DNA of 64,000 nucleotides from Candidatus Omnitrophota bacterium (GCA_028716165.1 JAQUQI010000001.1:50458-114457), one strand, 5' to 3'; positions 10,542 to 63,337 are shown, numbered from the stretch's first letter. The notes: generated by a model from the letters alone, not told the origin. Program-made: numbers and translations.

Positions 10542-10561
10542 GTTATCGCCTTATAAGATAA

Positions 10562-11551: not shown

Positions 11552-11589
11552 AAAACATTTTTCCCTTCATTTATACGCTATATTTGATA

Positions 11590-12218: not shown

Positions 12219-12246
12219 CACACAACCTCCTCTTTGGTTATAATGG

Positions 12247-43212: not shown

Positions 43213-43909
43213 TTATAAATCCAAGTCAACAATAACCAGCATATGATCACCATATCTTAACCACTCTGAATTTCTACCTATTTTCATATGGCTAGCTTTT
43301 TTTGCGATACCCCTATCCGCAAAGATGTAATCTATATGGTATGGCTTATTCTTATTTCTTTGCAAATACAAAGTGGATCTCGTCTCCTTGCCCTGCTTTT
43401 CGTCGAAATATTCATGGTATAAGCTTTTAATCCCTAATTCTTTCAATTCTCTAACTACATCTGAATGATTCCACCATCTATCCCACTTATCCCAGATAAC
43501 ATTGCTATTAAAATCACCAGCAATGACGGCTTTTTTTAATTTTCTTTTATGTAGCTGAAGATATTTCCAAAACTGGCCTATATAGCCAAATGTTGGAGAA
43601 TTTGCGCCGTGACACCACACTCCAACAAGATTAAATGAACCGTTCACCCTACAGGGTATAAAATATTTTAGCCCCTTATTGTCCCAACCTAATTGTTCTA
43701 TCTTTATGTCCTCTTTAGCAAAAATGCCTAACCCTTTATTCTGGTTTTCCCCTGTCCAAATGTAATTATTAGCCCACCCTCTGAAATCATCATCCTTATT
43801 CTTTGCTGGGTTTTCACACTCCTGAATTACAACAATATCGGCTTTTATTTTTTTAAATATACAAATTTTTTCTTAACGCGCCGTTACAATTCCAAGTGAT
43901 TATTCTCAT
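43213..43909 (-). pseudogene. endonuclease/exonuclease/phosphatase (EEP) family gene disrupted by a frameshift in a T6/A6 run
   Basis: ATG at 43909 gives MRIITWNCNGALRKNLYI then a stop. A different frame continues FKKIKADIVVIQECENP...GDHMLVIVDLDL. Removing one base from the homopolymer at 43866-43871 restores a full EEP ORF. Confidence 0.6.
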
Positions 43910-44092
43910 TTAAAACCTTTGCCACTATTCACGTTCGGTTCCTTCTTTGCCCAGTATCATAACTCATTTTTCTGCAAACAATTAACCCTTATCGTACCAA
44001 TCTCTCAACGAGTGTATAATCCGAGTGTAGCAATTTGTCCATCTGGCAGCCCAGAGTCCGTATAAAAACTTTCTTCACATTATTTATCCTAT

Positions 44093-44214
44093 TAAACCCC
44101 TTCCAATACGATAGCATTCATTTTTGTTGCTTTTTCACGTAATGGCGCGATCGCACGATACTCATCTGAATCCCACCAAGCTTGGAATCTATCCATAGAA
44201 TCGAACTCTACCAT
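44093..44214 (-). pseudogene. possible C-terminal remnant of a DUF1330-like gene
   Basis: 40-codon ORF (MVEFDSMDRFQAWWDSDEYRAIAPLREKATKMNAIVLEGV). It is cut off at its 5' side by repeat copy 1. The family assignment is from memory only. Confidence 0.2.
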
Positions 44215-44216
44215 GA

Positions 44217-44334
44217 TAACATACGTAGACGTCCTATTTGGTAACACCCTACATATAGCGGGGCGCTAAAAGTAAAAAGTTTTTTATATCCATTTGGCAG
44301 GGTGTAACTAAATAGGACGCCTGCTGATACCTAC
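44217..44334. repeat. copy 1 of a ~118-bp repeat with ~26-bp terminal inverted repeats (MITE-like)
   Basis: Near-identical copies at 58036-58152, 59220-59335 and 63213-63337. Termini are GTAGACGTCCTATTTGGTAACACCCT and AGGGTGTAACTAAATAGGACGCCTGC. Confidence 0.85.
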
Positions 44335-44452
44335 TTGAATACCTCAAGACCTTCGCGCTTAGTAAATGATTCAAGATATTCTCTCTGCACCTCAAGAGAA
44401 TATCCCTCTTTGGCTTGATCTTTTGTTGGTACCCGAATATAGAAGGCAATTT

Positions 44453-45052
44453 TCATTTGTTAGATTCTCTTTCCTTTGCTTTAAGCAACCGTTCTCTTGC
44501 TTTTGCAAAAATCTCTAATAATTTTGGTTGCATACCACTATTGAAAGTTCCACGCATATTAAAATGTCCATTAATTTCATTTACCATGGACTCGTATATT
44601 AATTTCTCAGCATCTTTCCATTCTTCAAAGCTAAAATAACTTGGGATTTTACCAGTTTCTGTATGATAGGCAGTTATCCACTCCCGTGTATTTTTTCCTC
44701 CAGAAAATTTTAAAGTTCTATCTATACTTTCTAAATAACGAGTAATATATAAATAATACTCATTTGGTGTTAATAAGCCTTTCTTTTCTTTTTCTTTTAA
44801 TTCCTTAAGGTCTTTGGACATCTCTGTTTGTCCTTGCAGTGTTTGATCTTGATATAATTCATTTCTGAAATCTTTATAATCTGTCGCCTTTTTCTCTCTC
44901 CAACCATACCATCCTTGGAATATTAAGCATAAGAAGATTATGGCAAATAACCCGATCTTAAATTCTTTAGTAATGCGATGTTCAGGAACAAAGCTGATAG
45001 CAGCACTGATTAGAGCAACAACAGCTATTGAAATAAAAAATGTCTTATCCAT
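44453..45052 (-). CDS. hypothetical membrane-anchored protein
   Basis: 199-aa ORF with two N-terminal hydrophobic segments and a charged coiled-coil-like C-terminus. No motif recognised. Confidence 0.4.
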   Translation of the reverse strand: MDKTFFISIAVVALISAAISFVPEHRITKEFKIGLFAIIFLCLIFQGWYGWREKKATDYKDFRNELYQDQTLQGQTEMSKDLKELKEKEKKGLLTPNEYYLYITRYLESIDRTLKFSGGKNTREWITAYHTETGKIPSYFSFEEWKDAEKLIYESMVNEINGHFNMRGTFNSGMQPKLLEIFAKARERLLKAKERESNK

Positions 45053-45058
45053 TTTAAA

Positions 45059-45247
45059 TTACTCCTTTAATTCACCACGCCACTTTTCAATATTTTTAAT
45101 ATCTTCTTTAGTAAAGACTGGATAATTGCGGTAATCACGTTTAGGTTTAACCCACCCCTTCTCTATCCAATTATAAAGAGTCTGACGGGTAATACCTAAT
45201 TCCCTTGCGGCATGAGTGATGTTATATATCTTATTCATAATGAGCAT
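45059..45247 (-). CDS. small helix-turn-helix DNA-binding protein (excisionase/AlpA- or MerR-like)
   Basis: 62 aa with ITHAARELGITRQTLYNWIEKGW, a typical excisionase-type HTH. Adjacent to repeat A. Confidence 0.5.
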   Translation of the reverse strand: MLIMNKIYNITHAARELGITRQTLYNWIEKGWVKPKRDYRNYPVFTKEDIKNIEKWRGELKE

Positions 45248-45299
45248 ATTTTACAGTATTAGACATTAATAGTCAATCTAAACTTTAGGTGGGAATAAA

Positions 45300-46010
45300 T
45301 TGGCTCGTAGCGCAAGGAGCGGAAACCGAAGGTTAACGCCTGAGCAACGAGACAATTTTTCGGGTGGGTGGGGGTTTCTCTTTCCACTGCTTTTTACTGG
45401 CAATTAGGGAATTGACAGACGGATTGCGAGCCGTGCGGGCGAGCAAGACGGAAAACATCAAAATCGCCCCCGCCATCGGCGGGGCATTACCCCCAAAAAG
45501 AATTTCTTTTTCTTTCTTTGCCCTCTTTAATTTTTTATTTTCGGAAACAGAAAAGAAACTGCAAGGCCAAAAAAATCAAAAAGGTTATAAAAATATGTCA
45601 AAAAAAATCTACATCCACACCTTCGGCTGACCCTTGGTTTGTTCTTTACAAGTTGGCTAAACCGTTCTTTTTCACGGCTTTTCAGGTTGAGTTGGCTGAA
45701 TAATGCACCGCCCGCTTCCGCCTCCTGAACGTCGGCTCCAGCGGGCTGCGTGGGTGGTGTTGGCACCGTTCGCCCCGCCTTGGGACGTGGCTCACTTGGC
45801 GGCCGCCTAGGCCGGCGGTCTTCGTGGTTGTGCAAGAGTACGATTCGGCTTTCCGTGTTTGGCGGATTTTGGACGGCGGCGAAAAATTTATAAAATGTGT
45901 TTTTGCTCTTCTTTAAGGGTGGGTGAGGCAAACGCACAAAGGGCGATGCGTAAATCCGAAGGATTAAAGCCGCCCGATTGCAATTGCCGAGGGAGGGAAA
46001 TTAGTACTAT
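45300..46010. repeat. mosaic repeat A (~0.7 kb, non-coding)
   Basis: 45620-45712 and 45801-45868 match the reverse complement of 57174-57279 and 57001-57152. 45895-45936 and 45307-45330 match 56595-56639 and 56981-57010 in direct orientation. Confidence 0.8.
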
Positions 46011-46031
46011 GTCCCCTGATTTAATGTTTTC

Positions 46032-46895
46032 TTATGTTTGTTTCTCTGGCTTATGGACTAAAATTCTATCTCCAGCAAACATTACTTCTTCTGGCTGGCC
46101 ACGAATAACTGCAATTGCATACCATTTCCATTCGCTTTCAACTCCGGCCAGTTTTCTTCTACCTTTCATTTTACTTCCGTATATAGTCCAACCTGAAGTT
46201 TCTAATTCACCCACCATATCAGAGACACGACTTGTAGCTTTCATTTGGCCAGGAATATCTATGTCATCCCAGATATCGCACCAATCTCGCAATTCTTGAA
46301 GGAAACCACCGACAAGATCGATTTCTGCATCATTATTAGGCTCGTCATTAAATGAATAAGAAAAATGACAGCTGGTTACAACATCAATAACTTCTCGGCC
46401 GGTGGTCAACCGTGGCATTACGGTTATTCGCTTTTGCCACGCTTCAATTATCCCGGGTTTTATTACTTCAATCAACTTTGCTAAAACAACATAGATACCC
46501 TCTTCCCATCTCCCTGCTATTCGATCTGCCAAAGTAGGCGAAAAAGATCTAATTTGCTTTGCGTCCATCTTAACCCAAATAGGGAGAATTACCTTCTCTC
46601 CATCTACTTCCCTTTGTGCCAACCCATCAAGTTCAAGCTTCGTATAGTGCTTATCAAAAAAAGCCGGGGACAAAACTGCAATACCGTAGCGGCTTTTCTT
46701 CAACCCTTCATCTATTTTATGTCGAAGGCTATCTCCAATTTTTAAATCAAACTGATCAAACCATACGCTTATTCCTAAAGAAGACAATAGCTGAGCAAGT
46801 GGTTTTGCAACTACCTCCCGATCTTCCGAGGCATATGAAATAAATACATCTTTCTCTACTGTAGAAGAATTATTCATTAAGCAATCCCATCTCAA
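46032..46895 (-). CDS. TIR-domain protein with uncharacterised C-terminal domain
   Basis: N-terminal TIR signature DVFISYASEDRE...SVWFD...GDSL...IAVLSP.F. It overlaps the 3' end of gajB by 26 nt, suggesting one operon. Confidence 0.65.
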   Translation of the reverse strand: MRWDCLMNNSSTVEKDVFISYASEDREVVAKPLAQLLSSLGISVWFDQFDLKIGDSLRHKIDEGLKKSRYGIAVLSPAFFDKHYTKLELDGLAQREVDGEKVILPIWVKMDAKQIRSFSPTLADRIAGRWEEGIYVVLAKLIEVIKPGIIEAWQKRITVMPRLTTGREVIDVVTSCHFSYSFNDEPNNDAEIDLVGGFLQELRDWCDIWDDIDIPGQMKATSRVSDMVGELETSGWTIYGSKMKGRRKLAGVESEWKWYAIAVIRGQPEEVMFAGDRILVHKPEKQT

Positions 46896-48816
46896 TCAAA
46901 AATCTTGAAGGCGTTTTACTCCATCCTCGATATTTTTCAGAATAGCTAAGTGTTAAACTTTTTATTGCCCGCGTAATCGCGACAAAGCAATTCCTCCGCT
47001 CTTCTTCCATTTCAGGACTCTTCTCGCCTTTTTGTTTACTCTGAAAAGATGGCAACTCATCTTCAACTAGACCAATCAAATATACATGATCAAATTCTTT
47101 GCCCTTTGCTCCATGTATTGACATAAGAACTACAGTATCGGGTTTTATCTTTGATTCTTTCGAGTGCAATTGTAATTCTTGCAAAAAGACCTCCAAAGAT
47201 AATTCTGTTCCAAGAGAAGCCGCTATTTCCTTAACAAGATCGTCCCAGACGGCGCGCTCTTCGTCATATCCCGCAAATACTTCTATACCTTGAGCGTTTG
47301 AAGCCACGTCTGGATTTTTTATCAGCTTGTCAAACCAGCTGATTGCATTCTTACAAAATAAACGGAAGTTCTTTTCGCCACCAATGAAGGCGAATACCTC
47401 AGCAATAATCTCTTTGGTTAAAACATCGCTACTCTTCTGCTCAGCAAATCTCATCCAATTTTGCAAGAAACCCAACGTCGAAGATTGCGCTTGCGTTACA
47501 ACTTCATCGGGGTCAATCTCAATGCCAACAAGTTGCTTAAATGCACCACACAAGGAATCTAAACTTGCCTTATCCTGCCGATTACTAGCAAGCCTTAAGA
47601 CCGAATGTAACCATACAAAAGGCGAACTAATAAACTCATCTTTCCTCTGCGCCACAACCGCAGGAATACCTTGATCTTGCAGTCCCTTAAAGGCCCCGTC
47701 TAATAACTTTCTGTTTCTGGCTAAAATAACAACAGATCCAAGCTGATTCGAGTAGCATTTTTTAATATCTTCACCAACGCCTTTTGCTTCTGTTTCAAAT
47801 TCAGGGAAGCGAGACAACAAACGCACCACATCCGCGCACTTACTAATTGGCTTATCTGCTAAAAGTGGTTTCTTCCCCGGAGATCTTAAAAAGTTATTAC
47901 TGATCAAATTATTCGCAATTGAAACAACCTCCGGAGGGCATCGATAATTCGTGGGCAACTGTAAAATTTCAGGGGAATAATCTTGAACAAATTGCTCGAT
48001 TCGCTTATGGCTCGCGCCGTTCCACTGATAAATAATCTGGTCATCATCAGCCACAATAAAAAAGTTTTTGTACTGATCCTCGGATAACGCTCTAATTAAT
48101 TTGTATTGTGCCTCATTTGTATCTTGAAATTCGTCTATGCATATGTAAGGATAAACTGTTCTATAACGTTTGGCAAAAGCCGGGAATTTCGTAAAAAGCC
48201 GGTAGGCCTGGAAAATCAACGAACTAAAATCTAAAGAATTTCGTCTTGATAATGCTTCTTCATAGGCTGGATAAACAACGGCCATGCGTTTTCCGAATTC
48301 CTTATCTCGAAAAACATCAACACACTGAGATGGCTCAATAAGAAACGATTTTAATCTTTGTATAACCGGCAATGTTTTCTTGTCGAGGTCAGATATTATA
48401 TCGCTTGTCTTCTTTGCTTCAGTTACCGCATCATCTAAAACGGCTTGAAGATCATAATCTTGAGAATAAATCTGAAAGTTTGGATTAATCCCTAAATGCA
48501 CTCCATGTTGACGTAATACATCCGCACAAAACGAATGGAATGTTCCTAAAAATAATCTGCTTTCTTGCCCCGGAACAAGATTAGCCACTCTTAAGCGCAT
48601 TTCGTCTGCGGCTTTATTAGTAAAAGTCAGGCCAAGAATTCTAAAATTCTTATCCTGACTTTTATCAAGAATCTTCGCTATACGACAGGTTAAAACTCTC
48701 GTCTTCCCAGACCCGGGGCCTGCAAGCACCAATAATGCCTCATCACCCCACTCAGCGGCTTTCTTCTGAACAAGACTTAATTTCTGCCATGCATTATCCA
48801 AGTCATTATTCGCCAT
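46870..48816 (-). CDS. gajB: UvrD/PcrA-like SF1 helicase (Gabija GajB-like)
   Basis: Walker A AGPGSGKT and helicase motifs (DEFQDTN, YRCPPEV). Immediately downstream of the OLD-family gene. Confidence 0.6.
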   Translation of the reverse strand: MANNDLDNAWQKLSLVQKKAAEWGDEALLVLAGPGSGKTRVLTCRIAKILDKSQDKNFRILGLTFTNKAADEMRLRVANLVPGQESRLFLGTFHSFCADVLRQHGVHLGINPNFQIYSQDYDLQAVLDDAVTEAKKTSDIISDLDKKTLPVIQRLKSFLIEPSQCVDVFRDKEFGKRMAVVYPAYEEALSRRNSLDFSSLIFQAYRLFTKFPAFAKRYRTVYPYICIDEFQDTNEAQYKLIRALSEDQYKNFFIVADDDQIIYQWNGASHKRIEQFVQDYSPEILQLPTNYRCPPEVVSIANNLISNNFLRSPGKKPLLADKPISKCADVVRLLSRFPEFETEAKGVGEDIKKCYSNQLGSVVILARNRKLLDGAFKGLQDQGIPAVVAQRKDEFISSPFVWLHSVLRLASNRQDKASLDSLCGAFKQLVGIEIDPDEVVTQAQSSTLGFLQNWMRFAEQKSSDVLTKEIIAEVFAFIGGEKNFRLFCKNAISWFDKLIKNPDVASNAQGIEVFAGYDEERAVWDDLVKEIAASLGTELSLEVFLQELQLHSKESKIKPDTVVLMSIHGAKGKEFDHVYLIGLVEDELPSFQSKQKGEKSPEMEEERRNCFVAITRAIKSLTLSYSEKYRGWSKTPSRFLIEMGLLNE

Positions 48817-48817
48817 T

Positions 48818-50734
48818 TTATCTCCCCAATGCCATGGAATCTTTTACTAAAGCAGAAAGAAAGTCGGGTACCCGATCTCCCTGCATATTTTTTCCCCGAA
48901 GTTTAGAAATCAACGCGTATGCATAGCCCACTTTATCTTTTCGGATAAGCGCTAATATTTCATTCCCATATTCAGCATCACCGGGCTTATTTTTTAACTT
49001 ATTGCCATTCCCCGTGATGAGCTCCGCATACTCAGCAACAAAACCATTTTTAATTAAGAATTCTTCTAAATCTTTACACGAATTAGGCCACAGCCTAATC
49101 GCGGTCTTAATTTGATCATCGCTGACACCACGATTCTTTACTTCTTTGATCGAATTCTTCCCCTGTTCATCGGTATCACACAGCATTAACCACGGAAAGG
49201 CAAATATTCGTGCTAACCCTACAAACAAACCAGCCGATCCATTATTTCTGTAATCAATTAAAGCAATGCCGTTGCAATCGAAAGACTGACCTAAAACTTC
49301 CGAGAAATAACGTACTATTGGATATTCTGATTGCCCTTCGCATAGAAGCCATGCCCGAGCAAAAAGAATTTCGCCTCTGATCCGCTTGACACATGTTTCT
49401 AACTTAATGAGATCTTGATCTGTTAAATGCAGACATGACTCCTCATATAAACTTTTGAGGTTTCCATGCAAATCAGTTTCGCCAGAATACATTGTTAAAA
49501 GCGACCGATATTCACTCTCTTCCATTTTCCCATTCAACGTTAATATCGATGTGGTCGAATCATAATGATACTTGGCAGATGATTGAGAACAAAAATTTTC
49601 TAATCCATCTTTGACCGGAAGCTTCACTGAAAATGAACGTTTAATACAATAAACATTAGATGCATTGTCGCCTCTCCTGAACAATCTAATGTCTTGGAAA
49701 GGAATTTCTTGAATAAAGTGGGGCGAATGAGAGGATATTATTTTTTGTGTCTTCAATTCGCATAAATTAGCGGCAAGCGCACGAATAGCTTGCGGATGCA
49801 AATGCGCCTCTGGCTCTTCCAATGTCAAAATAGCCTCTGTTTCTGATTCAAATGATGGCTTCAAAAGAATTTCAATATAAGCATAAAAAAGAAATAATAC
49901 AGTTAGACTTTGAATTCCTTGGCCATGACGGAGTAAAGGAATATCAATATCACTGCCCTTGGGCTTAATAACTACCTCTGATTTCGACATCAAATCCCAA
50001 GGCTTTAAAGGCACCGCCTGAATTGATGTATTACTGCCATCTCCAAAAGCCATAATTTTTTGGGCATTAGCAAAAGACGATCTAAATTTCTCAAGTCGAG
50101 GATCTGCCTTTAATAGATCCTTATTAATTTTCAGCAGATCTTCTCCGAGCGTTCTTCGCTGTTCATCACTAATCTTTAAATCTTTAAGAAATTTTCCCCA
50201 GTACTGCGACCTGACGGAAAACTCCTCGTCAGCATCCCGCAAAGCAGATAATGCGAATATTCGGATATAAGTTAAGAAGGCGGTAACATTACTGGCTTTT
50301 ACCTTTAAGACTTGTCCATCGATAGACAAAAATTCCACTCGGGGAGTGATAGTTTTGGTGACGGTGTCAGCTTTACTAGATAATCGTATACCGATAGAAT
50401 CGATATCTTTTATTGGATCCGTCTGGATAATGTCCTGAAGCGATTGAGATAACGATTCCGGCCATTCATCAGACTTGTCCTCGCGAAACCATAGCTCTAT
50501 TTCAATGCCTTCACTTGATAAAGGAGAATCCCCTGCTTTTGACATATAATAATCGTATTCATCGAATACAACGTTTTTCCCGTAAGAAGCCCGAGTCAAT
50601 ACGATTCGAATAGCCTCCAATAAAGCAGTTTTGCCGCTATTATTTTCTCCAATCAGAACGCAAGTGTCCGTAACGGACATCCGCATATCCTTAAGGCATC
50701 TAAAATTTTTTATAAAAATCTCTCTGAGTTTCAC
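48818..50734 (-). CDS. gajA: OLD-family ABC ATPase with C-terminal TOPRIM nuclease domain (Gabija GajA-like)
   Basis: N-terminus MKLREIFIKNFRCL...GENNSGKT is an OLD/RecF-like ATPase. The C-terminal Toprim has a glutamate in LLCEGQSE and a DTDEQG motif. 638 aa. Confidence 0.6.
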   Translation of the reverse strand: MKLREIFIKNFRCLKDMRMSVTDTCVLIGENNSGKTALLEAIRIVLTRASYGKNVVFDEYDYYMSKAGDSPLSSEGIEIELWFREDKSDEWPESLSQSLQDIIQTDPIKDIDSIGIRLSSKADTVTKTITPRVEFLSIDGQVLKVKASNVTAFLTYIRIFALSALRDADEEFSVRSQYWGKFLKDLKISDEQRRTLGEDLLKINKDLLKADPRLEKFRSSFANAQKIMAFGDGSNTSIQAVPLKPWDLMSKSEVVIKPKGSDIDIPLLRHGQGIQSLTVLFLFYAYIEILLKPSFESETEAILTLEEPEAHLHPQAIRALAANLCELKTQKIISSHSPHFIQEIPFQDIRLFRRGDNASNVYCIKRSFSVKLPVKDGLENFCSQSSAKYHYDSTTSILTLNGKMEESEYRSLLTMYSGETDLHGNLKSLYEESCLHLTDQDLIKLETCVKRIRGEILFARAWLLCEGQSEYPIVRYFSEVLGQSFDCNGIALIDYRNNGSAGLFVGLARIFAFPWLMLCDTDEQGKNSIKEVKNRGVSDDQIKTAIRLWPNSCKDLEEFLIKNGFVAEYAELITGNGNKLKNKPGDAEYGNEILALIRKDKVGYAYALISKLRGKNMQGDRVPDFLSALVKDSMALGR

Positions 50735-50776
50735 TGCTAATCCTCTTTAATACGGAGGTGATTCCTTTTCCCTAAT

Positions 50777-51304
50777 CTACACCGCCTCAAATACTCTTAT
50801 CTTATTCCGTACTTCTTCGAACATAACGTATTCGGGCCCCTTTGCCGTATCCCAATCGATTCCCTTATTCTTAAACCTTGGATCTGCACCTATCTCTATG
50901 TACATTTGATGATTACTTAGTTTGAACAAGACTTTACTTGCTTTTTCCAACAAAAAGAGATTCCGCGCAATTTCTTGAGTTTGCAATTTGTGCGCAATAT
51001 TGTGCGCTAAATCATTGCGATGTTCCCTCAATTCCTGAATAATCGAAACGTCATCAGAATCTATAATCTTCATAAAATCACGTAAATATAAAAGACAAGC
51101 TTCAAACTCATTCTTATGCCGAATTAAAACATCGTCTTCGTAAGACTTAAACGGCCCCCCTTCAGAAAACGTCATGTGCCAATAGAACGTTTTAATTGGC
51201 TTTACGATGAGACTTTTAACTAGTTCGAACGCAACTAAGATCAACCCAGCATAAGCGAGTGTTTGTGTAATCTCTCCATTTGTCAAATCACTAATTTTAT
51301 TCAT
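50777..51304 (-). CDS. hypothetical protein with N-terminal TM helix and HEPN-like Rx4H motif
   Basis: 175 aa with EHRNDLAHN. Sits between res and gajA. Confidence 0.35.
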   Translation of the reverse strand: MNKISDLTNGEITQTLAYAGLILVAFELVKSLIVKPIKTFYWHMTFSEGGPFKSYEDDVLIRHKNEFEACLLYLRDFMKIIDSDDVSIIQELREHRNDLAHNIAHKLQTQEIARNLFLLEKASKVLFKLSNHQMYIEIGADPRFKNKGIDWDTAKGPEYVMFEEVRNKIRVFEAV

Positions 51305-51482
51305 CGTTACTTTTATCTATCATCCTTCCGGAATTTCTTCTCGCATTTTGGACATTCGACTTCGTTATCGAAAAACAGGCTGCACGGCACATCGGCGCCG
51401 CAGTGCGGGCATTTCACGACGTCTGCGCCCATGGTGAAATCGTAGCCTAGAAACTCATTGAACGAATCATCGCCGGGCATTG

Positions 51483-54398: not shown

Positions 54399-56305
54399 TA
54401 CTTCACCTCCTCGATAACCGCGCTTTCAAAGCCAAAGACATCAACGGCTTTTATGCAAACCCTGCGCTTATGTTTCAGTTTCGGGACGCGCAGTTTGGTG
54501 TTTCTTACCACGCGCATCGGGTCATCATCCACCTCGGTATTGCCGCGATAATCCTGCCACTTGCTCCTAAAAACCTCTCCGTCATAATCCGGGTCTATAC
54601 TCCAATACTCGATCAGGGCCAGGGGATCCCTGGCGATTATTTCCTGCAATTTCTCCTTGTCTTTCTCCTCAAGCGGCAGCGCATCCGGAGAAAGAAGCAC
54701 ATAATTATCAAGCTTGACGGAAATTTCCTCTTCTTCCTTATTGAGCTCTTCCATATGAACCGGCTTAACGGAAAGATACTGCAGTGATGAAAAGCGTATT
54801 TTCCCACCCTTGATTAATTTCTGGTATGATGACTTGGTTTTAAGCCTATCAAGTAAATCTGGAGGAATAACAAGCACTTCAATATGCGGGTCATTAAGAT
54901 TTGCTATAACCTGCCCGATATCGGTTACGAAATTCCATCCCAGCACCACGACCTTCTTCCATCCGCCCATAAAGCTTGCGCGCAATTCCTGTGCCCTCTT
55001 AAGCGTTCCATAGCCGGTTAGCTTTGATGGCGAATCTACCATTACAAGCGTCCGGGACTCCTTAATGTATCCCAGGTTTCTCTGGGTAGGCTCTACATCC
55101 GAGAAGGGAATGGCACCATATAGATTGAGTACCACATGAGCAAGGTCGCTTACACGTCGGAACTCGCTTTTTTCGAATTGCTCTTTCTGGTAATCGCCAA
55201 TGCATTGGTATAAGAATGGTTTTGCGTCTTGATCAATAAGGCGTTTCCGCATAACCATACAGGATGGCTTGCCAATATCAACCGTAATCCAACGTCGCCC
55301 AAGTTTTTCTGCAACAGATCCAGTCGTTCCTGACCCGGCAAAGAAATCCGCGATAATCGAACCTTCTTTTGATGATGCTTTAATTATTCTTTCCAATAGC
55401 CTCTCGGGTTTTTGTGTTTGAAATCCTAAGTGCTCTGGTAATGCATGAAAAACTTGAACTATATTATTTTCTTTTCTATCAATCCATGTCCATACATCAT
55501 CGGCTTTTCTTCCTTCATCTGCATAATAACGCGTTGCGTTATTATTGCCTGACATCCGATATTTTCTACCCTTCTCATCTGTAAAAGGATAGATAGATTC
55601 ATCCTTAACCATTAGACGAATTTCGTTAAAAACATTCTCCGTTCCTTTACAATAAAATAATAGATTATCATGTTTTTTCGCAAATCCATTTTGAGGAGCT
55701 GTTCCTGCCTGATAGTGCCAAATAATTTCATTTCTAAAATTATTTTTCCCAAAAATATCATCCATCAATACTTTTACATAGTGCCCAACATGCCAATCTA
55801 AATGAACATATATTGAACCTTGCTCCGATAAAAGTTCTCGCATCAAGCAAATCCTCGGATAAAGCATCTTAAGATAACTCGCCGTTCCATCCTTCCAAGT
55901 ATCAGAATACGCAAATTGTTCAATGACTGTTGGCTTTTGTTCAATATCGCCGTTAGGCAAGGTAATTTTTGTGCGATAATCAGCTTTGGAATCAAACGGC
56001 GGGTCAATATAAATAAGATCTATTTTGCCGCGCATAGAGGGAAAGGCGGTTGACGGATCACCCGAGAGAAGTGCCTGCATCACTAAAAGATTATCGCCGT
56101 AAATCAAACGATTAAACCACTCCTTTTTATCAATCTCCCTGACGGCACCGCGGAAGAGTCCAGAACGCTCTTTGGACGGCAAAACATATTCATTTGTCTG
56201 CAAAACAATTCTTTCCTTTTCGGAAAGCTCGTTTAAAATCCTCTCCGCCTCCTTTTTTCCTTCGGCTACAATTTTTGGCAGTTGTTCAATTAATGATTCA
56301 GGCAT
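54398..56305 (-). CDS. mod: Type III R-M DNA methyltransferase, Mod subunit
   Basis: DPPF motif (IYIDPPFDSKADY) and a SAM-binding region (FFAGSGTTG). Confidence 0.8.
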   Translation of the reverse strand: MPESLIEQLPKIVAEGKKEAERILNELSEKERIVLQTNEYVLPSKERSGLFRGAVREIDKKEWFNRLIYGDNLLVMQALLSGDPSTAFPSMRGKIDLIYIDPPFDSKADYRTKITLPNGDIEQKPTVIEQFAYSDTWKDGTASYLKMLYPRICLMRELLSEQGSIYVHLDWHVGHYVKVLMDDIFGKNNFRNEIIWHYQAGTAPQNGFAKKHDNLLFYCKGTENVFNEIRLMVKDESIYPFTDEKGRKYRMSGNNNATRYYADEGRKADDVWTWIDRKENNIVQVFHALPEHLGFQTQKPERLLERIIKASSKEGSIIADFFAGSGTTGSVAEKLGRRWITVDIGKPSCMVMRKRLIDQDAKPFLYQCIGDYQKEQFEKSEFRRVSDLAHVVLNLYGAIPFSDVEPTQRNLGYIKESRTLVMVDSPSKLTGYGTLKRAQELRASFMGGWKKVVVLGWNFVTDIGQVIANLNDPHIEVLVIPPDLLDRLKTKSSYQKLIKGGKIRFSSLQYLSVKPVHMEELNKEEEEISVKLDNYVLLSPDALPLEEKDKEKLQEIIARDPLALIEYWSIDPDYDGEVFRSKWQDYRGNTEVDDDPMRVVRNTKLRVPKLKHKRRVCIKAVDVFGFESAVIEEVK

Positions 56306-56484
56306 TATCTCTCCCTTTTATTTTTATCTTTCTGCATCGCCTGGTTAATAAATCCCCTGATGATAGACACAACGGATGCGTTCTTATTTTGCTTCTGCAA
56401 CTCGAGGGCTTTTTCTTTCAGAAAAAAATACTGGTCTTGCGTGATTTCAATTGTCGTTTTCTTTATGCGTTTATTGGCAGGCAT
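56305..56484 (-). CDS. small ribbon-helix-helix-like protein, candidate controller of the Type III R-M operon
   Basis: 59-codon ORF (MPANKRIKKTTIEITQDQYFFLKEKALELQ...). Its stop overlaps the mod ATG (TAATG). Shorter than the ORF-track cutoff. Confidence 0.35.
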   Translation of the reverse strand: MPANKRIKKTTIEITQDQYFFLKEKALELQKQNKNASVVSIIRGFINQAMQKDKNKRER

Positions 56485-56559
56485 GTTTCGCTCCTTGATT
56501 GTTGCTTGACTATTTTACCCGTATACCCATATTTATGGATTATAGCACAATACATTGCT

Positions 56560-57290
56560 TTTGGAAACAAAAAAACCTCTAAGGGACAAGTAATCACACA
56601 AAGGGCGTTGCGGAAGCCCAAAGGGCTGAAGCCGCCCGGCTGTGACTGTTGGGCGGAGTTTTTTAAAATCCAAATATTCATCAAAGCAACGCGAACCCGA
56701 AGGGCAAAAGTCTTTCCGCCGAAGGCGGAATGTCTTTTGGCGGTGCGATCTGTTCTGGTTTTTTGAAAAAAAGACAGAAGTGTTGATGAATATTTGATAC
56801 AAGGTTTCTTTTCCTTTTTGGGGAAAAGTAGGCTTTGAGCGCAGGCAACGGAAGCCCGAAGGGCTGAAGTCCGAGCACAAAGACTGCTTTAGGTGGGTGG
56901 GGTATATAGAACCACCTCTGTTACCAAGATAGATTCGGCTTTGCCCCGACAAGCGATGTCCCGAAATGAATACGGGACAATCGCGCAGGCGGGGCGCGGA
57001 CGAAACCGAACAAAAACACCTTTTATAAATTTTTCGCGGCCGCCGATATAAAAAAGGAATAATTTAAGAGAATTTTTGCGAGGTTGAGGACGCTAAAGTG
57101 TTTGGCGAATTTTGGGTGGGGGCAAAATTCGCCAAACACGAAAAGCCGAATCGAACCCTTGCATAGGAAATGCTGGCGGTGCATCATTACCCCTTACATT
57201 GCCGTTAACTCAACTTGAAAAGCCGTAAAAAAGAACGGTTTAGCGAACTTGTAAAGAACAAACCAAGGGTCAGCCGAAAGTCCTCAGAAA
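56560..57290. repeat. mosaic repeat B (~0.7 kb, non-coding), partner of repeat A
   Basis: See repeat A. It contains two copies (56603-56639, 56843-56880) of a hairpin motif also present at 45901-45936. Confidence 0.8.
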
Positions 57291-57393
57291 AACTCGCTTT
57301 TTTGTATCAGTTTTATTCGTCATAAATTATGAAATATCTTTAGTCGTATATAAATCCCAATTTAGTCATGGTCGTTCATCGGTTCTATTAGCG

Positions 57394-58041
57394 TTAAATT
57401 TCTTTATTGATGTGGTAGTACGAAAATAATTTCCTATTTTTGTCTTTTGGTTCAAATAGTACGAGCATTGAATCATTGCAAGGGCCGAGTATGCCATTAA
57501 TCGAAGTGCAAGGTTTGTATAAAATGCCATCAAAGCCCATATTAAGTAGATATTCTGCAAATTCACCACTTTTTTTATATGACTGTTCGTTTCTTTGAAA
57601 CAAAATATCGAGCGCACTTTGATTTTGAATATCTTTATCAAAGTTAAATATTTTAGCAGATTGGTTAATCTTGAAAGCACCTTTGATTTCCTGTATTGGT
57701 TCTGGAGATGCAATCTGACTTGTCATTCTAGGCCATAAGTCTTGATTAAAATCAGGTTTATTATTATCAACTTTATAGTTCTTGAAATATTCTCCTATTT
57801 CAAAATCGATACGAGCGCAATCTTTAGCAAGATAACATACAGCTTGTTCTTTCGGAGCAAATCGAGTCTTCTTAGAATCTCTTTTAAAGTAAGGCTTCCA
57901 GTTTTTTGATGTTGTTCCACTATACCATTGAGAAACATAAACATGATCATTATGGCCTAATACATATTCTTTAAGATTTGATTCAATAAAAATTTCTTTG
58001 AATTGTGAGTTTTTCATGCTTGTAATCTTATTTGATAACAT
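57394..58041 (-). CDS. RES-domain protein (putative NAD+-targeting toxin)
   Basis: TRFAPKEQAVCYLAKDCARIDFEI (R, E) and GFDGILYKPCTSING...SMLVLFEP (S) resemble the RES domain's three conserved regions. Start taken as ATG at 58041, which lies inside repeat copy 2. Confidence 0.4.
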   Translation of the reverse strand: MLSNKITSMKNSQFKEIFIESNLKEYVLGHNDHVYVSQWYSGTTSKNWKPYFKRDSKKTRFAPKEQAVCYLAKDCARIDFEIGEYFKNYKVDNNKPDFNQDLWPRMTSQIASPEPIQEIKGAFKINQSAKIFNFDKDIQNQSALDILFQRNEQSYKKSGEFAEYLLNMGFDGILYKPCTSINGILGPCNDSMLVLFEPKDKNRKLFSYYHINKEI

Positions 58042-58152
58042 ACGTGGACGTCCTATTTGGTAACACCCTACATATGGCGGGGCGCTAAAAGTAAGAAGTT
58101 TTTTATATCTATTTGGCAGGGCGTAACTAAATAGGACGCCTGCTGATACCTC
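58036..58152. repeat. copy 2 of the ~118-bp repeat
   Basis: Alignment to the 44217-44334 copy. Confidence 0.85.
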
Positions 58153-58183
58153 TATTCTCATATTCACTGTTAAACGATTAATC

Positions 58184-59152
58184 TTATTTTTTTAAACGCT
58201 TCTCGATATCTAAAATGGTTGACCATTCTCGATCATCCAAACAATCAGGCTTTTCTAATGGTAATACTTGATTGCTAAAAATCATATTAAGCAAGCCAAA
58301 CAACTCGCTAAACTTGTATTGCTTAACAACTCTTTGGGCAGTATTTTTTAATGTTTCATAATCTTCTAGTTTCATCCACTGAGGCTTTTCAGCTTTAAGA
58401 AAGTCTATAGCAGATACATAATCGAAGCGACTTTCGGTATTTTGAAACATTACCCTGTAAGCCTCATCTCTCAACTCACGCTTATCTGCCTCTTTGTGTA
58501 AGATTTCATCTAATTTAACTTCTGTCAAATACACAAAAGGTTTCTTTTTGGATATTATTTCACGATAACTTTTAAATTCTGATTTCCCCGTCCAGTAACC
58601 TCTAAGAAATGAACAAATGAGAATAAATAATATATGTATAAGATAAATAACTGATAATAAAAGGATAGACAAAATAGTAGATGAATTTGACTGCGAAAGA
58701 GCTGGTTTACACAAACCATTCTGGTCAGCTATAGTAATATTTTCATCCTGAACATCTGCACCAATTGAGCTAAATATCAGAGTAAAATTACCATCCGGCG
58801 GAAGTTCAGGGTACAGTAAACTGAATTCTGCATCTTTCTTAATTATTTCAGGTTTGTCGGAAGCAAAATTTCTATTAACATCATATTTAATAACTTTTCG
58901 CTTAATAGTTACGCGAACATTTTCTGCTTTTAAGTTACCTAAGTTTTTAATGACTAGCTCTTGGGCAATTACTTTCGCATCTTCTGGTTTAATAGTCTCG
59001 CCCTGAAATGAAGTAATTGATATGCCTTTGGACAAAGTATAACTAACATTGGGTGACTTTTTGTTTAACGCAAATGACAAAATGACAGCGATTAAAGGAA
59101 CTATAATACTTATATTTTTCACAATTTTCATATAACCCTCCTCAAAAATCAT
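58184..59152 (-). CDS. hypothetical membrane protein
   Basis: 322 aa with an N-terminal signal/TM segment and an internal TM. A GAGGAGGG ribosome-binding site precedes an internal ATG (MKIVKNI). Confidence 0.4.
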   Translation of the reverse strand: MIFEEGYMKIVKNISIIVPLIAVILSFALNKKSPNVSYTLSKGISITSFQGETIKPEDAKVIAQELVIKNLGNLKAENVRVTIKRKVIKYDVNRNFASDKPEIIKKDAEFSLLYPELPPDGNFTLIFSSIGADVQDENITIADQNGLCKPALSQSNSSTILSILLLSVIYLIHILFILICSFLRGYWTGKSEFKSYREIISKKKPFVYLTEVKLDEILHKEADKRELRDEAYRVMFQNTESRFDYVSAIDFLKAEKPQWMKLEDYETLKNTAQRVVKQYKFSELFGLLNMIFSNQVLPLEKPDCLDDREWSTILDIEKRLKK

Positions 59153-59219
59153 ACTAAATCATTCATCCATTTTTTTATCTTTCCGATATCAACATCCGTG
59201 AACACAGGATAATTTCTAT

Positions 59220-59335
59220 TAACATACGTAGACATCCTATTTGGTGACACCCTACATATAGCGGGGCGCTAAAAGTAAGGTGTTTTTTATATCCATTTGG
59301 CAGAGTGTAACTAAATAGGACGCCTGCTGATATCT
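59220..59335. repeat. copy 3 of the ~118-bp repeat
   Basis: Alignment to the other copies. Confidence 0.85.
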
Positions 59336-59370
59336 GCAAATCCTTTTTTAAAACCGTTCATTGGCACCCC

Positions 59371-59583
59371 CTATTCGTTACCTTGAATATTTAAACTTTT
59401 AATTTCTTCCAACCCTATGTTTTTATATTCTTCGGGAAGAATCAAATGTTCTGCATTTAAAACAACTATATTTTTGATTATCTGGCCGGACTTTAACACA
59501 ATATCTACTTTTTGATACCCCATGCCGGTTTCTGGGTATTTAAGTAAATATTCAGTCCAGTATTTATTTAGTTTCAGTTTCAT
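59371..59583 (-). CDS. small protein paralogous to the N-terminal domain of the adjacent TNT-like protein
   Basis: 70 aa sharing the PETGMGYQ motif and flanking residues with residues 1-60 of 59584..60246. Confidence 0.4.
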   Translation of the reverse strand: MKLKLNKYWTEYLLKYPETGMGYQKVDIVLKSGQIIKNIVVLNAEHLILPEEYKNIGLEEIKSLNIQGNE

Positions 59584-60246
59584 TTAATTCGCTGGGATTG
59601 TATTGGGTCCAGTTACAGTCTTTTTGGGAGATCCATTTTCAAATAACACCTCTACTCCACCACCAGGTTTTCCATTCGCTGGTTCTACAACTCCAACTCG
59701 AACAGACGTTTTTTCAGGAGGCTGAATAGTAAAAACATAAATTGCAGGCTCATCACTAGGCAAGGCATATCTGTTCATTGCATCACTTCCCGTTCTAACA
59801 TTTCGAGCATCTGCTTCTGTAGTTGCATAAGCTCCGGGTAGTAAACTGCCATCCTCCCCAATACGACGGTCATTCCTATAGGGTGAGAACCTTTTAAAAA
59901 CTTGATCTTTGCCTGTTAAAGAACTAGCGGCTTGACAAGCAGGCACTCCTGCAGATTTTGCAAAATGCCTAGTTTCTCCAAGTTGAAGTCGGCTTCGTCC
60001 AACAACTTTTAATGTTCGAATGTACCCAGGCCTTTCTGCTTCGTTAAGAATTGCTGAATATGTAAGAAATCGCCTACCCATAATTTTTTCAATTCTTTCT
60101 TCGGGAATAAAAACTTCTGAATTCAGCACTACGCCTTGCGAGGTAGATAAATTACTCATTGAGGCTTCGACATATTGATACCCCATCCCTGTCTCTGGTT
60201 GACTAACTAATTCTCGAATTTGTGTATCAGATAATTTGTACGGCAT
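59584..60246 (-). CDS. two-domain protein: N-terminal PETGMGYQ-motif domain + C-terminal TNT-like (NAD+ glycohydrolase toxin-like) domain
   Basis: The C-terminal region (YRNDRRIGEDGSLLPGAYATTEADARNVRTGSDAMNRYALP...GKPGGGVEVLF) resembles the TNT/DUF4237 pattern ending in G-Q-P-G-G-G. This is recalled from memory, not searched. Confidence 0.35.
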   Translation of the reverse strand: MPYKLSDTQIRELVSQPETGMGYQYVEASMSNLSTSQGVVLNSEVFIPEERIEKIMGRRFLTYSAILNEAERPGYIRTLKVVGRSRLQLGETRHFAKSAGVPACQAASSLTGKDQVFKRFSPYRNDRRIGEDGSLLPGAYATTEADARNVRTGSDAMNRYALPSDEPAIYVFTIQPPEKTSVRVGVVEPANGKPGGGVEVLFENGSPKKTVTGPNTIPAN

Positions 60247-60258
60247 ATCATCCCTCCT

Positions 60259-62058
60259 TCAATTTTTCTCTTGCTGTCTTTTAGTTACACAAACTAAAAG
60301 GCAAATACTGAGCCATAAAAGAAATAACGATGAATTACTGCTTATATCTAACGAATTTATCAGACCATGGCAAACCCTATTCCTTAAATTTGGGCCATAC
60401 TTTTTTATGAGGAGCGAACGCATTTCCCATACTAAATCTTTTCCAAAGATAGCTTCTGCGCTCTGGTCATTTAATAATTGATTTAAGTCGCGTTCCTCTT
60501 GCACCCCGCTCGACGAAACCGATGTTGTTTTAAGCCCATTTAAGCCAAAAAGCATCCTTATAGAATTCTCAATCTGGGGGACAATAAAGTGAATAAATGT
60601 CAGATAGTCGCCCTCAAATCCGGCAATCAAAGCCCTCTCAAAGATATCCGTTCGATCTTTTGGCACAAAGATGCTCTTTCCAACTAATTCCTTTATAGTA
60701 TCCCGCCATGATTCCTCTGATTGAAGAAATAAGTCAACACCTCTTTTTATCGTCGTACAAGCCGAAAGACTTTGACCGAGATTATATCCTTTGATTATTT
60801 GCGCCTTAAGGCTACCTTCATAATCCTCAGTCATGCCAGGTATTTTCGCAGTAACGTTTCCCTCATCTTCAATTATGTGGGCACCAATAATTCCTTGCAG
60901 CGGATGCTCTTTAAGCATTTTTTCAGCAGACGCTTTCTCCTGGTCGTAATTAAATGGTCTGTGCAAGGCGGCAAAAGCCTCGATTGCCTCGATTCCTTTC
61001 TTGCCCTGTATTAAGTCGTCAGCGATTTTTATTAATGGGCCTGCGTCAATAGTTGGACTTTTTATCACCTTCATTTGACTGATTGAAATTTTGTTTGCTT
61101 CCTTCAATTCATGTACTAACTCTTCCGCTCGCTTTTTGTCACCTGCCGCTCGGTATGCGTGAATAGCTTGCTCAATCCTATGTGCCAAGTTTAAGCCGTC
61201 ACAACCTTGAGGAGTCTTAAAAGCCTGTGCTTCGTCTTCCCAATGTTTAGCTATGGCTAACTTTGCTTCCTTTGCCTTTTCAGGCTTGTCCGCATAACTA
61301 TAACATGTTGCCGCATATTCATAGTATTTTCGAGGGGCATCACAACCGGGAGAAATTGGAAAACCTTTGGCAATTTCTACCGCCTTCCCAGCAAGCTCTT
61401 CCCAATTGTCAACAAGCTTATTCTCGATTAAAAGCTCTAAAAGCGAAGACGGCCAATAATCCTGTTTCGCATTAAAGCATGTCTTCATGCTTTCTTCAAA
61501 GAGACTCAGAATCTTATCTCGGACAGTCTGCCTTTCTTGAGCTTTCTCACCCAACTCCATAGCTATTTGCGTAGCTCGTTTAAGCCATTCACTTCTCGGC
61601 ACCCAACACTCATCCTTATCCTCGTCAACAGATTGCAAATATGCCTTTACGGCTTTCTGCGCAAACAAATAATTTCTGCGTCTTATCCAAAGGACATCAC
61701 TAATTCTGGCAACAAATTGAAGATTAGTAAATACAGTTAATACTTCTTCAAGTTCCGACAATTCTGTGTCGCTCAAATCTTCAGGCATCATTGTTCTTCC
61801 CTGTGGCCCTGACATAAGTGGCCCAAATGGCTGTTTCTCGCCCCATTGAAAAAACATCGAGAAAACGCCCCAAAGTAGCCGCATAAATTCTTCCAATTCC
61901 TTATCATCAGCCTTCTTAGCGGCATCTTGCCTCTGCCTAAACGAAGATAAAAAATCGGTAAACTTCTTTCCCTGAACATCGGCAATAGCCTCTTTACAAG
62001 CACATATTAACTTTTCACTTAATTTTGACATCTTCTTTATCCATCTGCTAAATCTCAT
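60259..62058 (-). CDS. large hypothetical protein with C-terminal HEPN-like motif (DUF4209-like)
   Basis: 599 aa. The C-terminal GPNLRNRVCHGL fits the HEPN Rx4-6H motif. Confidence 0.35.
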   Translation of the reverse strand: MRFSRWIKKMSKLSEKLICACKEAIADVQGKKFTDFLSSFRQRQDAAKKADDKELEEFMRLLWGVFSMFFQWGEKQPFGPLMSGPQGRTMMPEDLSDTELSELEEVLTVFTNLQFVARISDVLWIRRRNYLFAQKAVKAYLQSVDEDKDECWVPRSEWLKRATQIAMELGEKAQERQTVRDKILSLFEESMKTCFNAKQDYWPSSLLELLIENKLVDNWEELAGKAVEIAKGFPISPGCDAPRKYYEYAATCYSYADKPEKAKEAKLAIAKHWEDEAQAFKTPQGCDGLNLAHRIEQAIHAYRAAGDKKRAEELVHELKEANKISISQMKVIKSPTIDAGPLIKIADDLIQGKKGIEAIEAFAALHRPFNYDQEKASAEKMLKEHPLQGIIGAHIIEDEGNVTAKIPGMTEDYEGSLKAQIIKGYNLGQSLSACTTIKRGVDLFLQSEESWRDTIKELVGKSIFVPKDRTDIFERALIAGFEGDYLTFIHFIVPQIENSIRMLFGLNGLKTTSVSSSGVQEERDLNQLLNDQSAEAIFGKDLVWEMRSLLIKKYGPNLRNRVCHGLINSLDISSNSSLFLLWLSICLLVCVTKRQQEKN

Positions 62059-62127
62059 TTAAATACTTTACGATAGTCATGCAACACTGCATTCCTTAAA
62101 AGCGCCACCTTTTAGGGTTTTTATTTT

Positions 62128-63099
62128 TCACCAAGCTGTTACACGATAATCTTTCCCGTCCTTTCCAGTCCCTTCAAAAGTGCGAGGGATTGTCAGGTTA
62201 AAGTTTCTCAATCCTTTTGTAATTTCCATTTTTAAAGATTTGCGCCTTTTCTCATCAAGCAAGGCATAATCAAGTTCTTGCAAAATATATTTTTTTCTGT
62301 CCGCGCTCTTTTGATTGCGTCTTTTTTGATCCCTTAGCAATATTAAAAGTATTATAATTGCTTTTCTTGTATATCGTGAGATAAGGCTTCGATCAGGGTC
62401 ATACGATAAAGATCCTCCTCCATGAACTAATGTGCTTCGTTTATTATAAAATGATTTTAGCTTTTCAAAACTTTCTATCGGGTCGATACCACAAAAGCTG
62501 AGTAAAAAACTCGCTCGTTGTGCTAATTTGTATTTGATATCTATAGGCGCATCATTAAATAGCGCCTCCATGCTAATCATCGCATTAACGAAGCCTTCGT
62601 CACTATGAATAGATTTTTTATTTGCTTCGTGGAAGTATTCTAAGGCCACAGCTAAAAATTTGTTCTGATTAACAATATCAATATACTTATCATGAAGCTT
62701 ACCAATGAACCCCAAGAACTTGTGAGCATATTTTTCTATACCATCCACAGCTTCATTAGGTATAGATGTAGTGATTGAACAGGAAAAAAGTGGTTTCTTT
62801 CCAAGCTCACTTTCGGAAGATATTGATCTCCCACCACCACAAGTTAAATCAGGAGAATTCGGCGTTATCAAACAAGATACCCATAAATAGGGGATTATTT
62901 TATTCTCGTTATCTGTCGTTTTATTATCATCACCTAACAGATAGGCAATAAGATTGTCGCCCTTTTTCTCTAGCAACAACTCGCCTTTTTTTAACCAGAC
63001 TTTTTTCTTCAGATGTACCTGTCTAGGAATTAGCCCATCTATCGTAAAATTCCACTGGTATAACTTTGAATTAACTTTTCCACTCATACCATGCATCAT
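62128..63099 (-). CDS. hypothetical HEPN-motif protein (Abi-like)
   Basis: 323 aa. YNKRSTLVHGGG fits the Rx4-6H HEPN motif. Confidence 0.35.
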   Translation of the reverse strand: MMHGMSGKVNSKLYQWNFTIDGLIPRQVHLKKKVWLKKGELLLEKKGDNLIAYLLGDDNKTTDNENKIIPYLWVSCLITPNSPDLTCGGGRSISSESELGKKPLFSCSITTSIPNEAVDGIEKYAHKFLGFIGKLHDKYIDIVNQNKFLAVALEYFHEANKKSIHSDEGFVNAMISMEALFNDAPIDIKYKLAQRASFLLSFCGIDPIESFEKLKSFYNKRSTLVHGGGSLSYDPDRSLISRYTRKAIIILLILLRDQKRRNQKSADRKKYILQELDYALLDEKRRKSLKMEITKGLRNFNLTIPRTFEGTGKDGKDYRVTAW

Positions 63100-63212
63100 A
63101 TAATTCTGCCTCGCCTTCTTCTGCCAAATCCTGTTTTATCCCTATTAATCTCTATCGCCCTTTCTACCCATTACGAATATCAACGGCTTCCGTTTACCAG
63201 ATGGTGCTTAAA

Positions 63213-63337
63213 TAACATACGTAGACGTCCTATTTGGTAACACCCTACATACTACATATAGCGGGGCGCTAAAAGTAAAAAGTTTTTTATATCCATTTGG
63301 CAGGGTGTAACTAAATAGGACGCCTGCTAATACCTAC
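63213..63337. repeat. copy 4 of the ~118-bp repeat (with 7-bp internal duplication)
   Basis: Alignment to the other copies. ACATACT is duplicated at 63247-63260. Confidence 0.85.

Follow-up and report, generated by a model that had tools for sequence, protein, structure and literature searches.

What is a short non-coding repeat doing four times over among the accessory genes of a Candidatus Omnitrophota bacterium? We addressed this question in a 64,000-nt stretch of its DNA (GCA_028716165.1, JAQUQI010000001.1:50458-114457; hereafter the window), in which an earlier note had described four copies of a repeat resembling a MITE (a miniature transposable element with inverted repeats), each said to lie between genes immediately 5′ of an accessory gene and to supply that gene with a Shine-Dalgarno (SD) sequence and an ATG. 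The note suggested that the repeat may be either a small mobile element delivering translation signals or a cassette boundary of an undescribed kind. The most useful new fact from our analysis is that the copies mark breakpoints of a decayed defence island of the large-serine-recombinase (LSR) type at miaB, a key piece of context that the earlier note had missed. A small mobile element remains the best reading of what is a discrete, hairpin-forming repeat in an accessory region; delivery of translation signals is not supported.

A repeat search of the window returned a single family of four direct copies of ~119 nt each, all on the minus strand, which is the orientation of every gene in the region: copy 1 (44217..44333, 117 nt), copy 2 (58036..58152, 117 nt), copy 3 (59220..59335, 116 nt, the most diverged of the four) and copy 4 (63213..63337, 125 nt, including a 7-bp tandem duplication, TATGTAG). 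Upon alignment with their flanks (MAFFT), the copies showed boundaries that are sharp on both sides and the same ends in all four places. Pairwise identity is 91.4–99.1%, in keeping with the earlier description of a novel, co-oriented repeat over 90% identical with a 7-bp duplication in copy 4; copies 1 and 4 are 99% identical and differ by one base and that duplication. Two 35–36 nt sub-patterns of the repeat, allowing ≤3 mismatches, matched exactly the four copies in the window, with 0 matches expected from 100 dinucleotide-preserving shuffles, and searches of the window by nhmmer profile and by covariance model likewise recovered the four copies only. All four lie within 19 kb, the window's 43 kb of core genes carrying zero copies, and the substitutions among them form no mosaic pattern. 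The 117-bp repeat is real, and its family, although of a general kind that is known, has not been described before.

Read along the minus strand, the element consists of TAGGTATCAGC, a left arm AGGCGTCCTATTTAGTTACACCCTGC, an A/T-rich core of ~50 nt, a right arm GTAGGGTGTTACCAAATAGGACGTCT and finally ACGTATGTTA, its ends being TAGGTATCAGCAGGCGTCC ... GGACGTCTACGTATGTTA. The ~26-bp imperfect inverted repeats of the earlier description stand as to length (24–26 bp), with the amendment that they are subterminal and not terminal and that the core is slightly shorter than the ~55 bp given. Between the arms 24 positions pair, two of them as G.T; the stem is free of bulges, its two mismatches (A.C and T.T) being symmetric, and the core holds a 5-bp GC hairpin of its own (TAGCG-CCC-CGCTA). 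The outer 10–12 nt on each side (TAGGTATCAGC on the left, ACGTATGTTA on the right) are conserved across copies and mutually non-complementary; only weaker complementarity reaches the termini (38 nt at 76%). The element is non-coding, with stops in 5/6 frames, and its size of 116–125 bp falls in the range of MITEs (about 50–500 bp). As DNA it folds at −19.6 and −20.5 kcal/mol on the two strands (z −3.8 for −19.6), and the RNA fold that the note had proposed computing proved to be a strong hairpin at −41.0 and −40.9 kcal/mol (z −4.2 for −41). Five single changes affect the stem across the four copies, three leading to G.U and two to A.C; an apparent coding-sense bias toward G.U, seen at first in three of three changes, was abandoned on this full count. 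Compensatory stem changes are absent among the four copies and substitution density is alike in stems and loops; there is no sign of selection acting on the fold. Neither a sigma-70-like promoter nor an intrinsic terminator was found inside any copy.

On the left side of copy 1, DNA homology to the intact recombinase genes of relatives stops after ...GAGGTATTCAAG (...EVFK), and the next base is base 1 of the element. What is left of the gene is a large serine recombinase pseudogene comprising the first 41 codons (44331..44456, minus strand; Pfam Resolvase positions 2–34, E 2.7e-4), whose TAG stop is formed by the first 3 nt of copy 1; a tblastn search of the window with the 592-aa recombinase of relative L086 matched residues 1–40 and nothing else. 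Because its catalytic serine has also been replaced by proline (YIRVPTKDQ, compared with RVSTEDQ in intact relatives), the remnant kept decaying after truncation. Directly past copy 1, where no gene starts, lies the C-terminal fragment of a DUF1330 gene (44092..44216, minus strand; Pfam PF07045 positions 49–94 of 94, E 2e-12), followed by a frameshifted endonuclease/exonuclease/phosphatase pseudogene (43213..43913, minus strand; Exo_endo_phos on a 144-aa C-terminal open reading frame (ORF), E 5.8e-4) and then by miaB (41702..43135, minus strand). At copy 3, 2 nt beyond the right end begins the C-terminal fragment of a second MerR/excisionase-like helix-turn-helix (HTH) gene (59149..59217, minus strand), about 22–25 final codons or the C-terminal third, to which residues 36–56 of the L086 HTH protein match (59217–59155, tblastn E 8e-4) and which is a paralogue of the gene at 45059–45247, while the left flank of copy 3 is not an HTH N-terminus. 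The gene fragments at these two copies thus begin or stop 0–2 nt from the element ends. Copies 1 and 3, at least, separate fragments of unrelated genes (recombinase N-terminus and DUF1330 C-terminus; an unknown sequence and an HTH C-terminus), and since copy 1 abuts both a cut recombinase and a DUF1330 fragment and copy 3 an HTH fragment, the copies are better described as breakpoint marks than as clean intergenic insertions, contrary to the placement first proposed.

Copy 2 lies 25 nt past the stop of the ORF at 58184–59152 and 18 nt ahead of the ATG at 58017 that starts a 207-aa gene (57394..58017, minus strand), and at copy 4 a short ORF, which gave no tblastn match among phages and plasmids, runs into the element, the next gene following 113 nt beyond. 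From the end of copy 3 to the next start codon the distance is about 67–87 nt, and that gene has an SD of its own, GAGGAGGG. The spacing of 40–140 nt upstream of the next start given previously is therefore not what was measured (18, about 67–87 and 113 nt, and no gene start at all past copy 1). The 207-aa gene had been labelled a RES toxin, a label that depends on a sub-threshold family match (E 0.015, 15.8 bits versus a Pfam cut-off of 23.2).

The structure surrounding these junctions became apparent from related loci. In the window, an HTH gene (45059–45247, minus strand, 62 aa, Pfam MerR_1) and a 199-aa gene (44453–45052, minus strand, 47 homologues) form a conserved module (44453..45247) that in related islands precedes a serine recombinase. 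The order HTH, 196-aa gene, recombinase, miaB recurs in L085–L088, L090 and L092; the longer of these contigs read D5-type primase ... HTH (58 aa), 196-aa gene, large serine recombinase (592 aa, with Resolvase, Recombinase and Zn_ribbon_recom domains) and miaB, and closer relatives keep the same HTH–199-aa–recombinase order. Because relatives keep this arrangement intact and abutting miaB, the window island is a relative of a serine-recombinase integrative element, and the 43.2–64 kb segment is a decayed LSR integrative island carrying defence genes at miaB. Its cargo from 43.2 kb to the window end includes Gabija GajA/GajB, a ThsB-like TIR protein, a HEPN protein and type III res and mod, in addition to a PDC-S39 protein (DUF7380/DUF4209), an Apea-like HEPN protein and a Fic protein. 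In L085–L088 the recombinase stop codon overlaps the miaB start, which suggests that the miaB 5′ end is a conserved attachment site of this family of integrative elements. The MiaB of the window itself is only 62–63% identical to its nearest relatives beyond its own population.

How far these junctions can be trusted was assessed in independent assemblies, the same population having been sampled in Joint Genome Institute (JGI) metagenome 3300037067 and in three Sequence Read Archive runs. JGI scaffold L093 reads through copies 3 and 2 with no gap, its flanks matching those of the window exactly, which gives independent confirmation of both junctions. The copy 1 junction is also present in JGI scaffold L082 and in Logan contigs L083 and L084; in L082 the terminal 12 nt of copy 1 run straight into a stretch of Ns, and its scaffolding joins the same two flanks. 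The junctions of copies 1 and 4 accordingly rest on the contig of the metagenome-assembled genome (MAG) plus scaffolding. Logan contigs end ~30 nt inside the copies (L081 starts 30 nt inside the right end of copy 4), as is to be expected where an assembly at k=31 meets a multi-copy repeat. An alternative arrangement of the segments was not seen in four other samples.

Beyond this population the repeat could not be traced. A two-arm pattern with variable core matched none of 185,579 species genomes (one per species) and no JGI metagenome contig, although the latter scan is incomplete for the source population (L082 carries the first pattern yet was not returned), and neither a 20-mer in metagenomes nor a 17-mer in IMG/VR gave a match. 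Plasmid and phage collections (blastn) held no relative of the element, and 5.8 billion proteins none of its one open frame. When an extended ORF was compared with 1.84 billion representatives, the sole match was a eukaryotic sushi-repeat protein, which we consider spurious. Similarly, nhmmer and covariance-model searches of up to 92 loci yielded one extra match (L085–L087), an ordinary intrinsic terminator (AAAGACGTCC...GGACGTCTTTTTTTT) set aside as chance. The note had named a match to a known tRNA or non-coding RNA family as an outcome that would count against its proposal. No Rfam family matched across the region at gathering level or at E <1, and the element alone drew generic plant miRNA-precursor models only (≤24 bits against thresholds of 50–139). 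Within the collections searchable, the family is confined to one lineage.

Taken together, we favour, tentatively and at somewhat less than an even chance, a lineage-restricted, non-coding, non-autonomous MITE/REPIN-like element, with deletions brought about by its direct copies. The inverted arms would be bound by a transposase whose gene lies in another part of the genome, and the element would have invaded an LSR defence island beside miaB that was already non-essential. Recombination between direct copies, or adjacent deletions mediated by the transposase, may then have removed the intervening DNA and left single copies where unrelated gene fragments meet; one such deletion would have taken recombinase codons 42–592 and thereby fixed the island in place. 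The transposition, the trans-acting enzyme and the deletion steps are inferred. The exact element ends abut arbitrary intragenic positions, which points to insertion at some time, and to the behaviour of a transposable element and not of a designed cassette site. Furthermore, the repeat copies are 91–99% identical to one another, whereas amino-acid identity to the HTH protein of L086 is just 57% for the HTH fragment at copy 3 and for the full HTH gene alike; it follows that the spread or homogenisation of the repeat came later than the divergence of the modules, and that the repeat is not an inherited island end. MITEs are known as hotspots of homologous recombination and can mobilise the DNA that they flank (PMC10969869). 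Several observations weigh against this interpretation. The strong arms start 10–12 nt inside each end. No consistent direct repeat of 2–10 bp flanks the copies, even with boundaries shifted by ≤6 nt, although this test for target duplication is a weak one, since any duplication would be lost where flanks are chimeric. The known copies number only four, clustered in 19 kb and in one orientation, with none outside the source population in the public collections searched, and no clean empty site was found, the four other samples included. The annotated parts of the window (including 1–22 kb) hold no transposase or related full-length insertion sequence. Lastly, if all four junctions are chimeric, many events must have taken place in a small region.

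The element shares features with several known systems. Correia/NEMIS elements of Neisseria, ERIC/IRU of enterobacteria and RUP of pneumococcus are, like it, ~100–150 bp long and non-coding, with ~25-bp arms forming one long hairpin between co-directional genes, and such elements are known to favour recombination and rearrangement (PMC2229807, PMC3184786, PMC10969869). In those families, however, the inverted repeats lie at the very ends, a target duplication (TA or other) is present and the copies, dispersed, run to tens or hundreds, whereas here the strong repeat is subterminal, a duplication is not detectable and four clustered copies are known. IS200/IS605-derived PATEs and the REP/REPIN-RAYT system share its asymmetric ends, subterminal structure, absence of target duplication and uniform orientation relative to a replication-skewed strand, and an AG can be read at the end of each of the four left flanks, a reading that depends on the alignment of an indel-bearing left end. 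Unlike the element, PATEs carry a small separate hairpin at each end (REP sequences being palindromes of 20–40 nt) and have an identifiable Y1 transposase or RAYT; neither feature is seen here. In its plan of arms and spacer the element is REPIN-like, but its arms are not palindromes, its copies abut mid-gene breakpoints and there is no RAYT in the window.

A different explanation, to which we give a low probability, is that a dedicated non-IntI recombinase encoded outside the window recognises the element as its site, the segments between copies being cassettes excised as one-copy circles and re-inserted. Length, imperfect hairpin, direct orientation, high similarity within the array and co-oriented accessory or toxin genes are all shared with integron attC sites, among them the ~120-bp repeats of sedentary chromosomal integrons. 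Under this explanation the four direct copies co-oriented with every gene, segment lengths of 1.2, 4.0 and 13.8 kb (2.1 kb in place of 13.8 kb on removal of an 11.66-kb inverted-repeat block), the tight packing at copy 2, the conserved mismatches and asymmetric conserved tails of the hairpin, the undetected target duplication and the defence- or toxin-type cargo would all be natural. The structure itself departs from attC, however, in that only symmetric mismatches and G.T pairs interrupt the stem, extrahelical bases are lacking and conserved single-stranded tails lie outside it; a regular-expression scan for RYYYAAC and GTTRRRY on both strands of each copy, with 15 nt per side, bore out the earlier statement that R″/R′ cores are missing. 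Nor do the surroundings resemble an attC array, since the segments hold several genes and fragments within a serine-recombinase island, and the 'cassettes' begin or end in gene fragments, which has no explanation without prior insertion. IntI or another tyrosine recombinase was not present among the island ORFs scanned, the array running off the window at 64000 with its head unseen, and the island part of the window contains no live recombinase of any type, its sole recombinase being the one cut by the element. The substitutions lack the mosaic pattern, and the other four samples the rearranged segments, that cassette exchange might have left. That a cassette system unrelated to integrons assembles an Omnitrophota defence island at a structured DNA site devoid of attC cores we regard as rather improbable. 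Two further recombination sites were tried and rejected. The 3′ tail (TATGTTA(A/T)) is reminiscent of a dif/XerCD site, but against the dif consensus there is no matching XerC arm, inner palindrome or GC-skew switch (skew is negative across the whole window) and the locus is at miaB. As the att site of the island's own serine recombinase the element is unsuitable because the half-sites are 50 nt apart, it does not resemble the recombinase/miaB junction of relatives and its copies are far less diverged than the module genes. A diversity-generating retroelement was likewise dismissed, as copy differences are not adenine-specific and no reverse transcriptase is nearby.

The hairpin could alternatively act at the RNA level, the element being a passive boundary or linker with a role in mRNA processing or stability, borne between genes that are co-transcribed, comparable in effect to PeSL or ERIC sequences, that spread by homologous recombination and gene conversion. 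We judge this unlikely. It would account for the sense orientation of all copies within one long co-directional array and for the strength of the RNA fold, and module shuffling via short regulatory repeats is documented: the PeSLs of T4-type phages are short gene-boundary repeats in hyperplastic regions, where recombination deletes, replaces or circularises modules (PMC2839356). PeSLs are nonetheless defined by a strong sigma-70 promoter and a terminator stem-loop (PMC2839356), neither of which was found in the element, the stem changes betray no selection on the fold, the two strands fold equally well, and the mid-gene breakpoints at the element ends are left without an account. A portable translation-initiation module, giving its SD and ATG to the gene downstream, appears very improbable indeed. 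The signals described by the earlier note do exist, as an AGGA stands 9 nt before an ATG (AGGA-N9-ATG) at the 3′ end of all copies and the ATG of copy 2 (58041) is in frame with the next ORF. The SD, however, is located in the 3′ arm of the long −41 kcal/mol stem, with the ATG in the tail, and the ATG is in frame in one copy of four, opening frames of 4, 16 and 12 codons in copies 1, 3 and 4, respectively. Even at copy 2, homologues align with the 257-aa extended ORF from query residue 52–54 (residue 52 being residue 2 of the best match, P0168) and hence start at the downstream Met, and the gene after copy 3 is preceded by its own SD. A final concern is that the repeat is real and some of its chimeric flanks are short-read mis-joins, especially at copies 1 and 4, which differ so little from each other; this we hold to be distinctly improbable. 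Whichever explanation holds, the element is a practical hazard: all the short-read assemblies examined are either broken or scaffolded where it occurs, for which reason the structure of islands in these MAGs has to be confirmed with long reads. Against mis-joining, copy 3, itself chimeric, is spanned together with copy 2 by the gapless L093, exchanging the left and right flanks of the four copies in any combination repairs no broken gene, and the scaffolding of L082 puts copy 1 between the same two flanks. Mis-assembly of flanks is thus possible for copies 1 and 4 and not for copies 2 and 3.

If a deletion-driving mobile element is the correct interpretation, it would be a first description of a small mobile repeat in Omnitrophota, a candidate phylum about which little is known, and a clean case of repeats pruning and immobilising an integrative defence island, of whose recombinase only 41 codons are left; as such it would bear on how defence islands turn into fixed chromosomal features. 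If instead the element proved to be a structured recombination site bounding mobile segments, gene-cassette capture would have arisen in a second way, independent of integrons.

Several neighbouring features were recorded in the course of this analysis. The 13.8-kb spacing between copies 2 and 1 is due to an 11.66-kb block inserted there (45619..57281), which does not belong to the repeat family and is bounded by 75-bp inverted repeats (95% complementary), with further subterminal inverted repeats over ~290 bp per end. Besides a small RHH-like ORF it carries the ThsB-like TIR gene, gajB, gajA, the HEPN gene and type III res and mod; it lacks a transposase, shows no obvious duplication of its target and resembles a non-autonomous transposon with defence cargo. 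The block is also found in a 98%-identical JGI strain (L082) and had no match in the plasmid collection. Its ~700-bp non-coding ends contain repeated GC-rich hairpin motifs of the type GGCTTCAGCCCTTCGGGCTTCCG (45921–45976, 56583–56638 and also 56690–56900), for which no tRNA or Rfam match was obtained.

Among the relatives, L085–L088 (e.g. L086:1-13640), which are Omnitrophota-like, represent an integrative element with an nSTAND NTPase, DUF4062 and DUF6933 proteins, the D5-type primase, the HTH gene, the 196-aa gene and the 592-aa recombinase. Within the window, the frameshift of the phosphatase-family pseudogene (43213–43913) falls in an A-run, where a stop follows MRIITWNCNGALRKNLYI and the frame then resumes, reflecting either a true pseudogene or a homopolymer error; the same 144-aa C-terminal ORF is also called in JGI scaffold L082. 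The 322-aa ORF at 58184–59152 probably starts at its second ATG (59132, after GAGGAGGG), giving ~315 aa, and is called at 328 aa by JGI. Further along, adjacent ORFs of 70 aa (59371–59583) and 220 aa (59584–60246) have a similar N-terminal segment, visible as a direct repeat (59504–59547 and 60167–60210, 75% identical), and the 220-aa protein shows a faint TNT-toxin-like match (E 0.014); the pair could be a toxin and a truncated paralogue or immunity-like partner. Next to them, a 599-aa DUF7380/DUF4209 protein (60259–62058) is a full-length match (E 3e-118) to PDC-S39, a candidate defence family, and adjoins a 323-aa protein with a weak Apea-like HEPN match. At the opposite end of the window, 1–22 kb is occupied by genes for glycan and nonulosonic-acid biosynthesis, inside which a low-GC patch at 10000–14000 (0.34–0.38 versus ~0.45) includes a 484-aa ORF (12247–13701) that has no Pfam match and is possibly a horizontally replaced polymerase or flippase-type gene.

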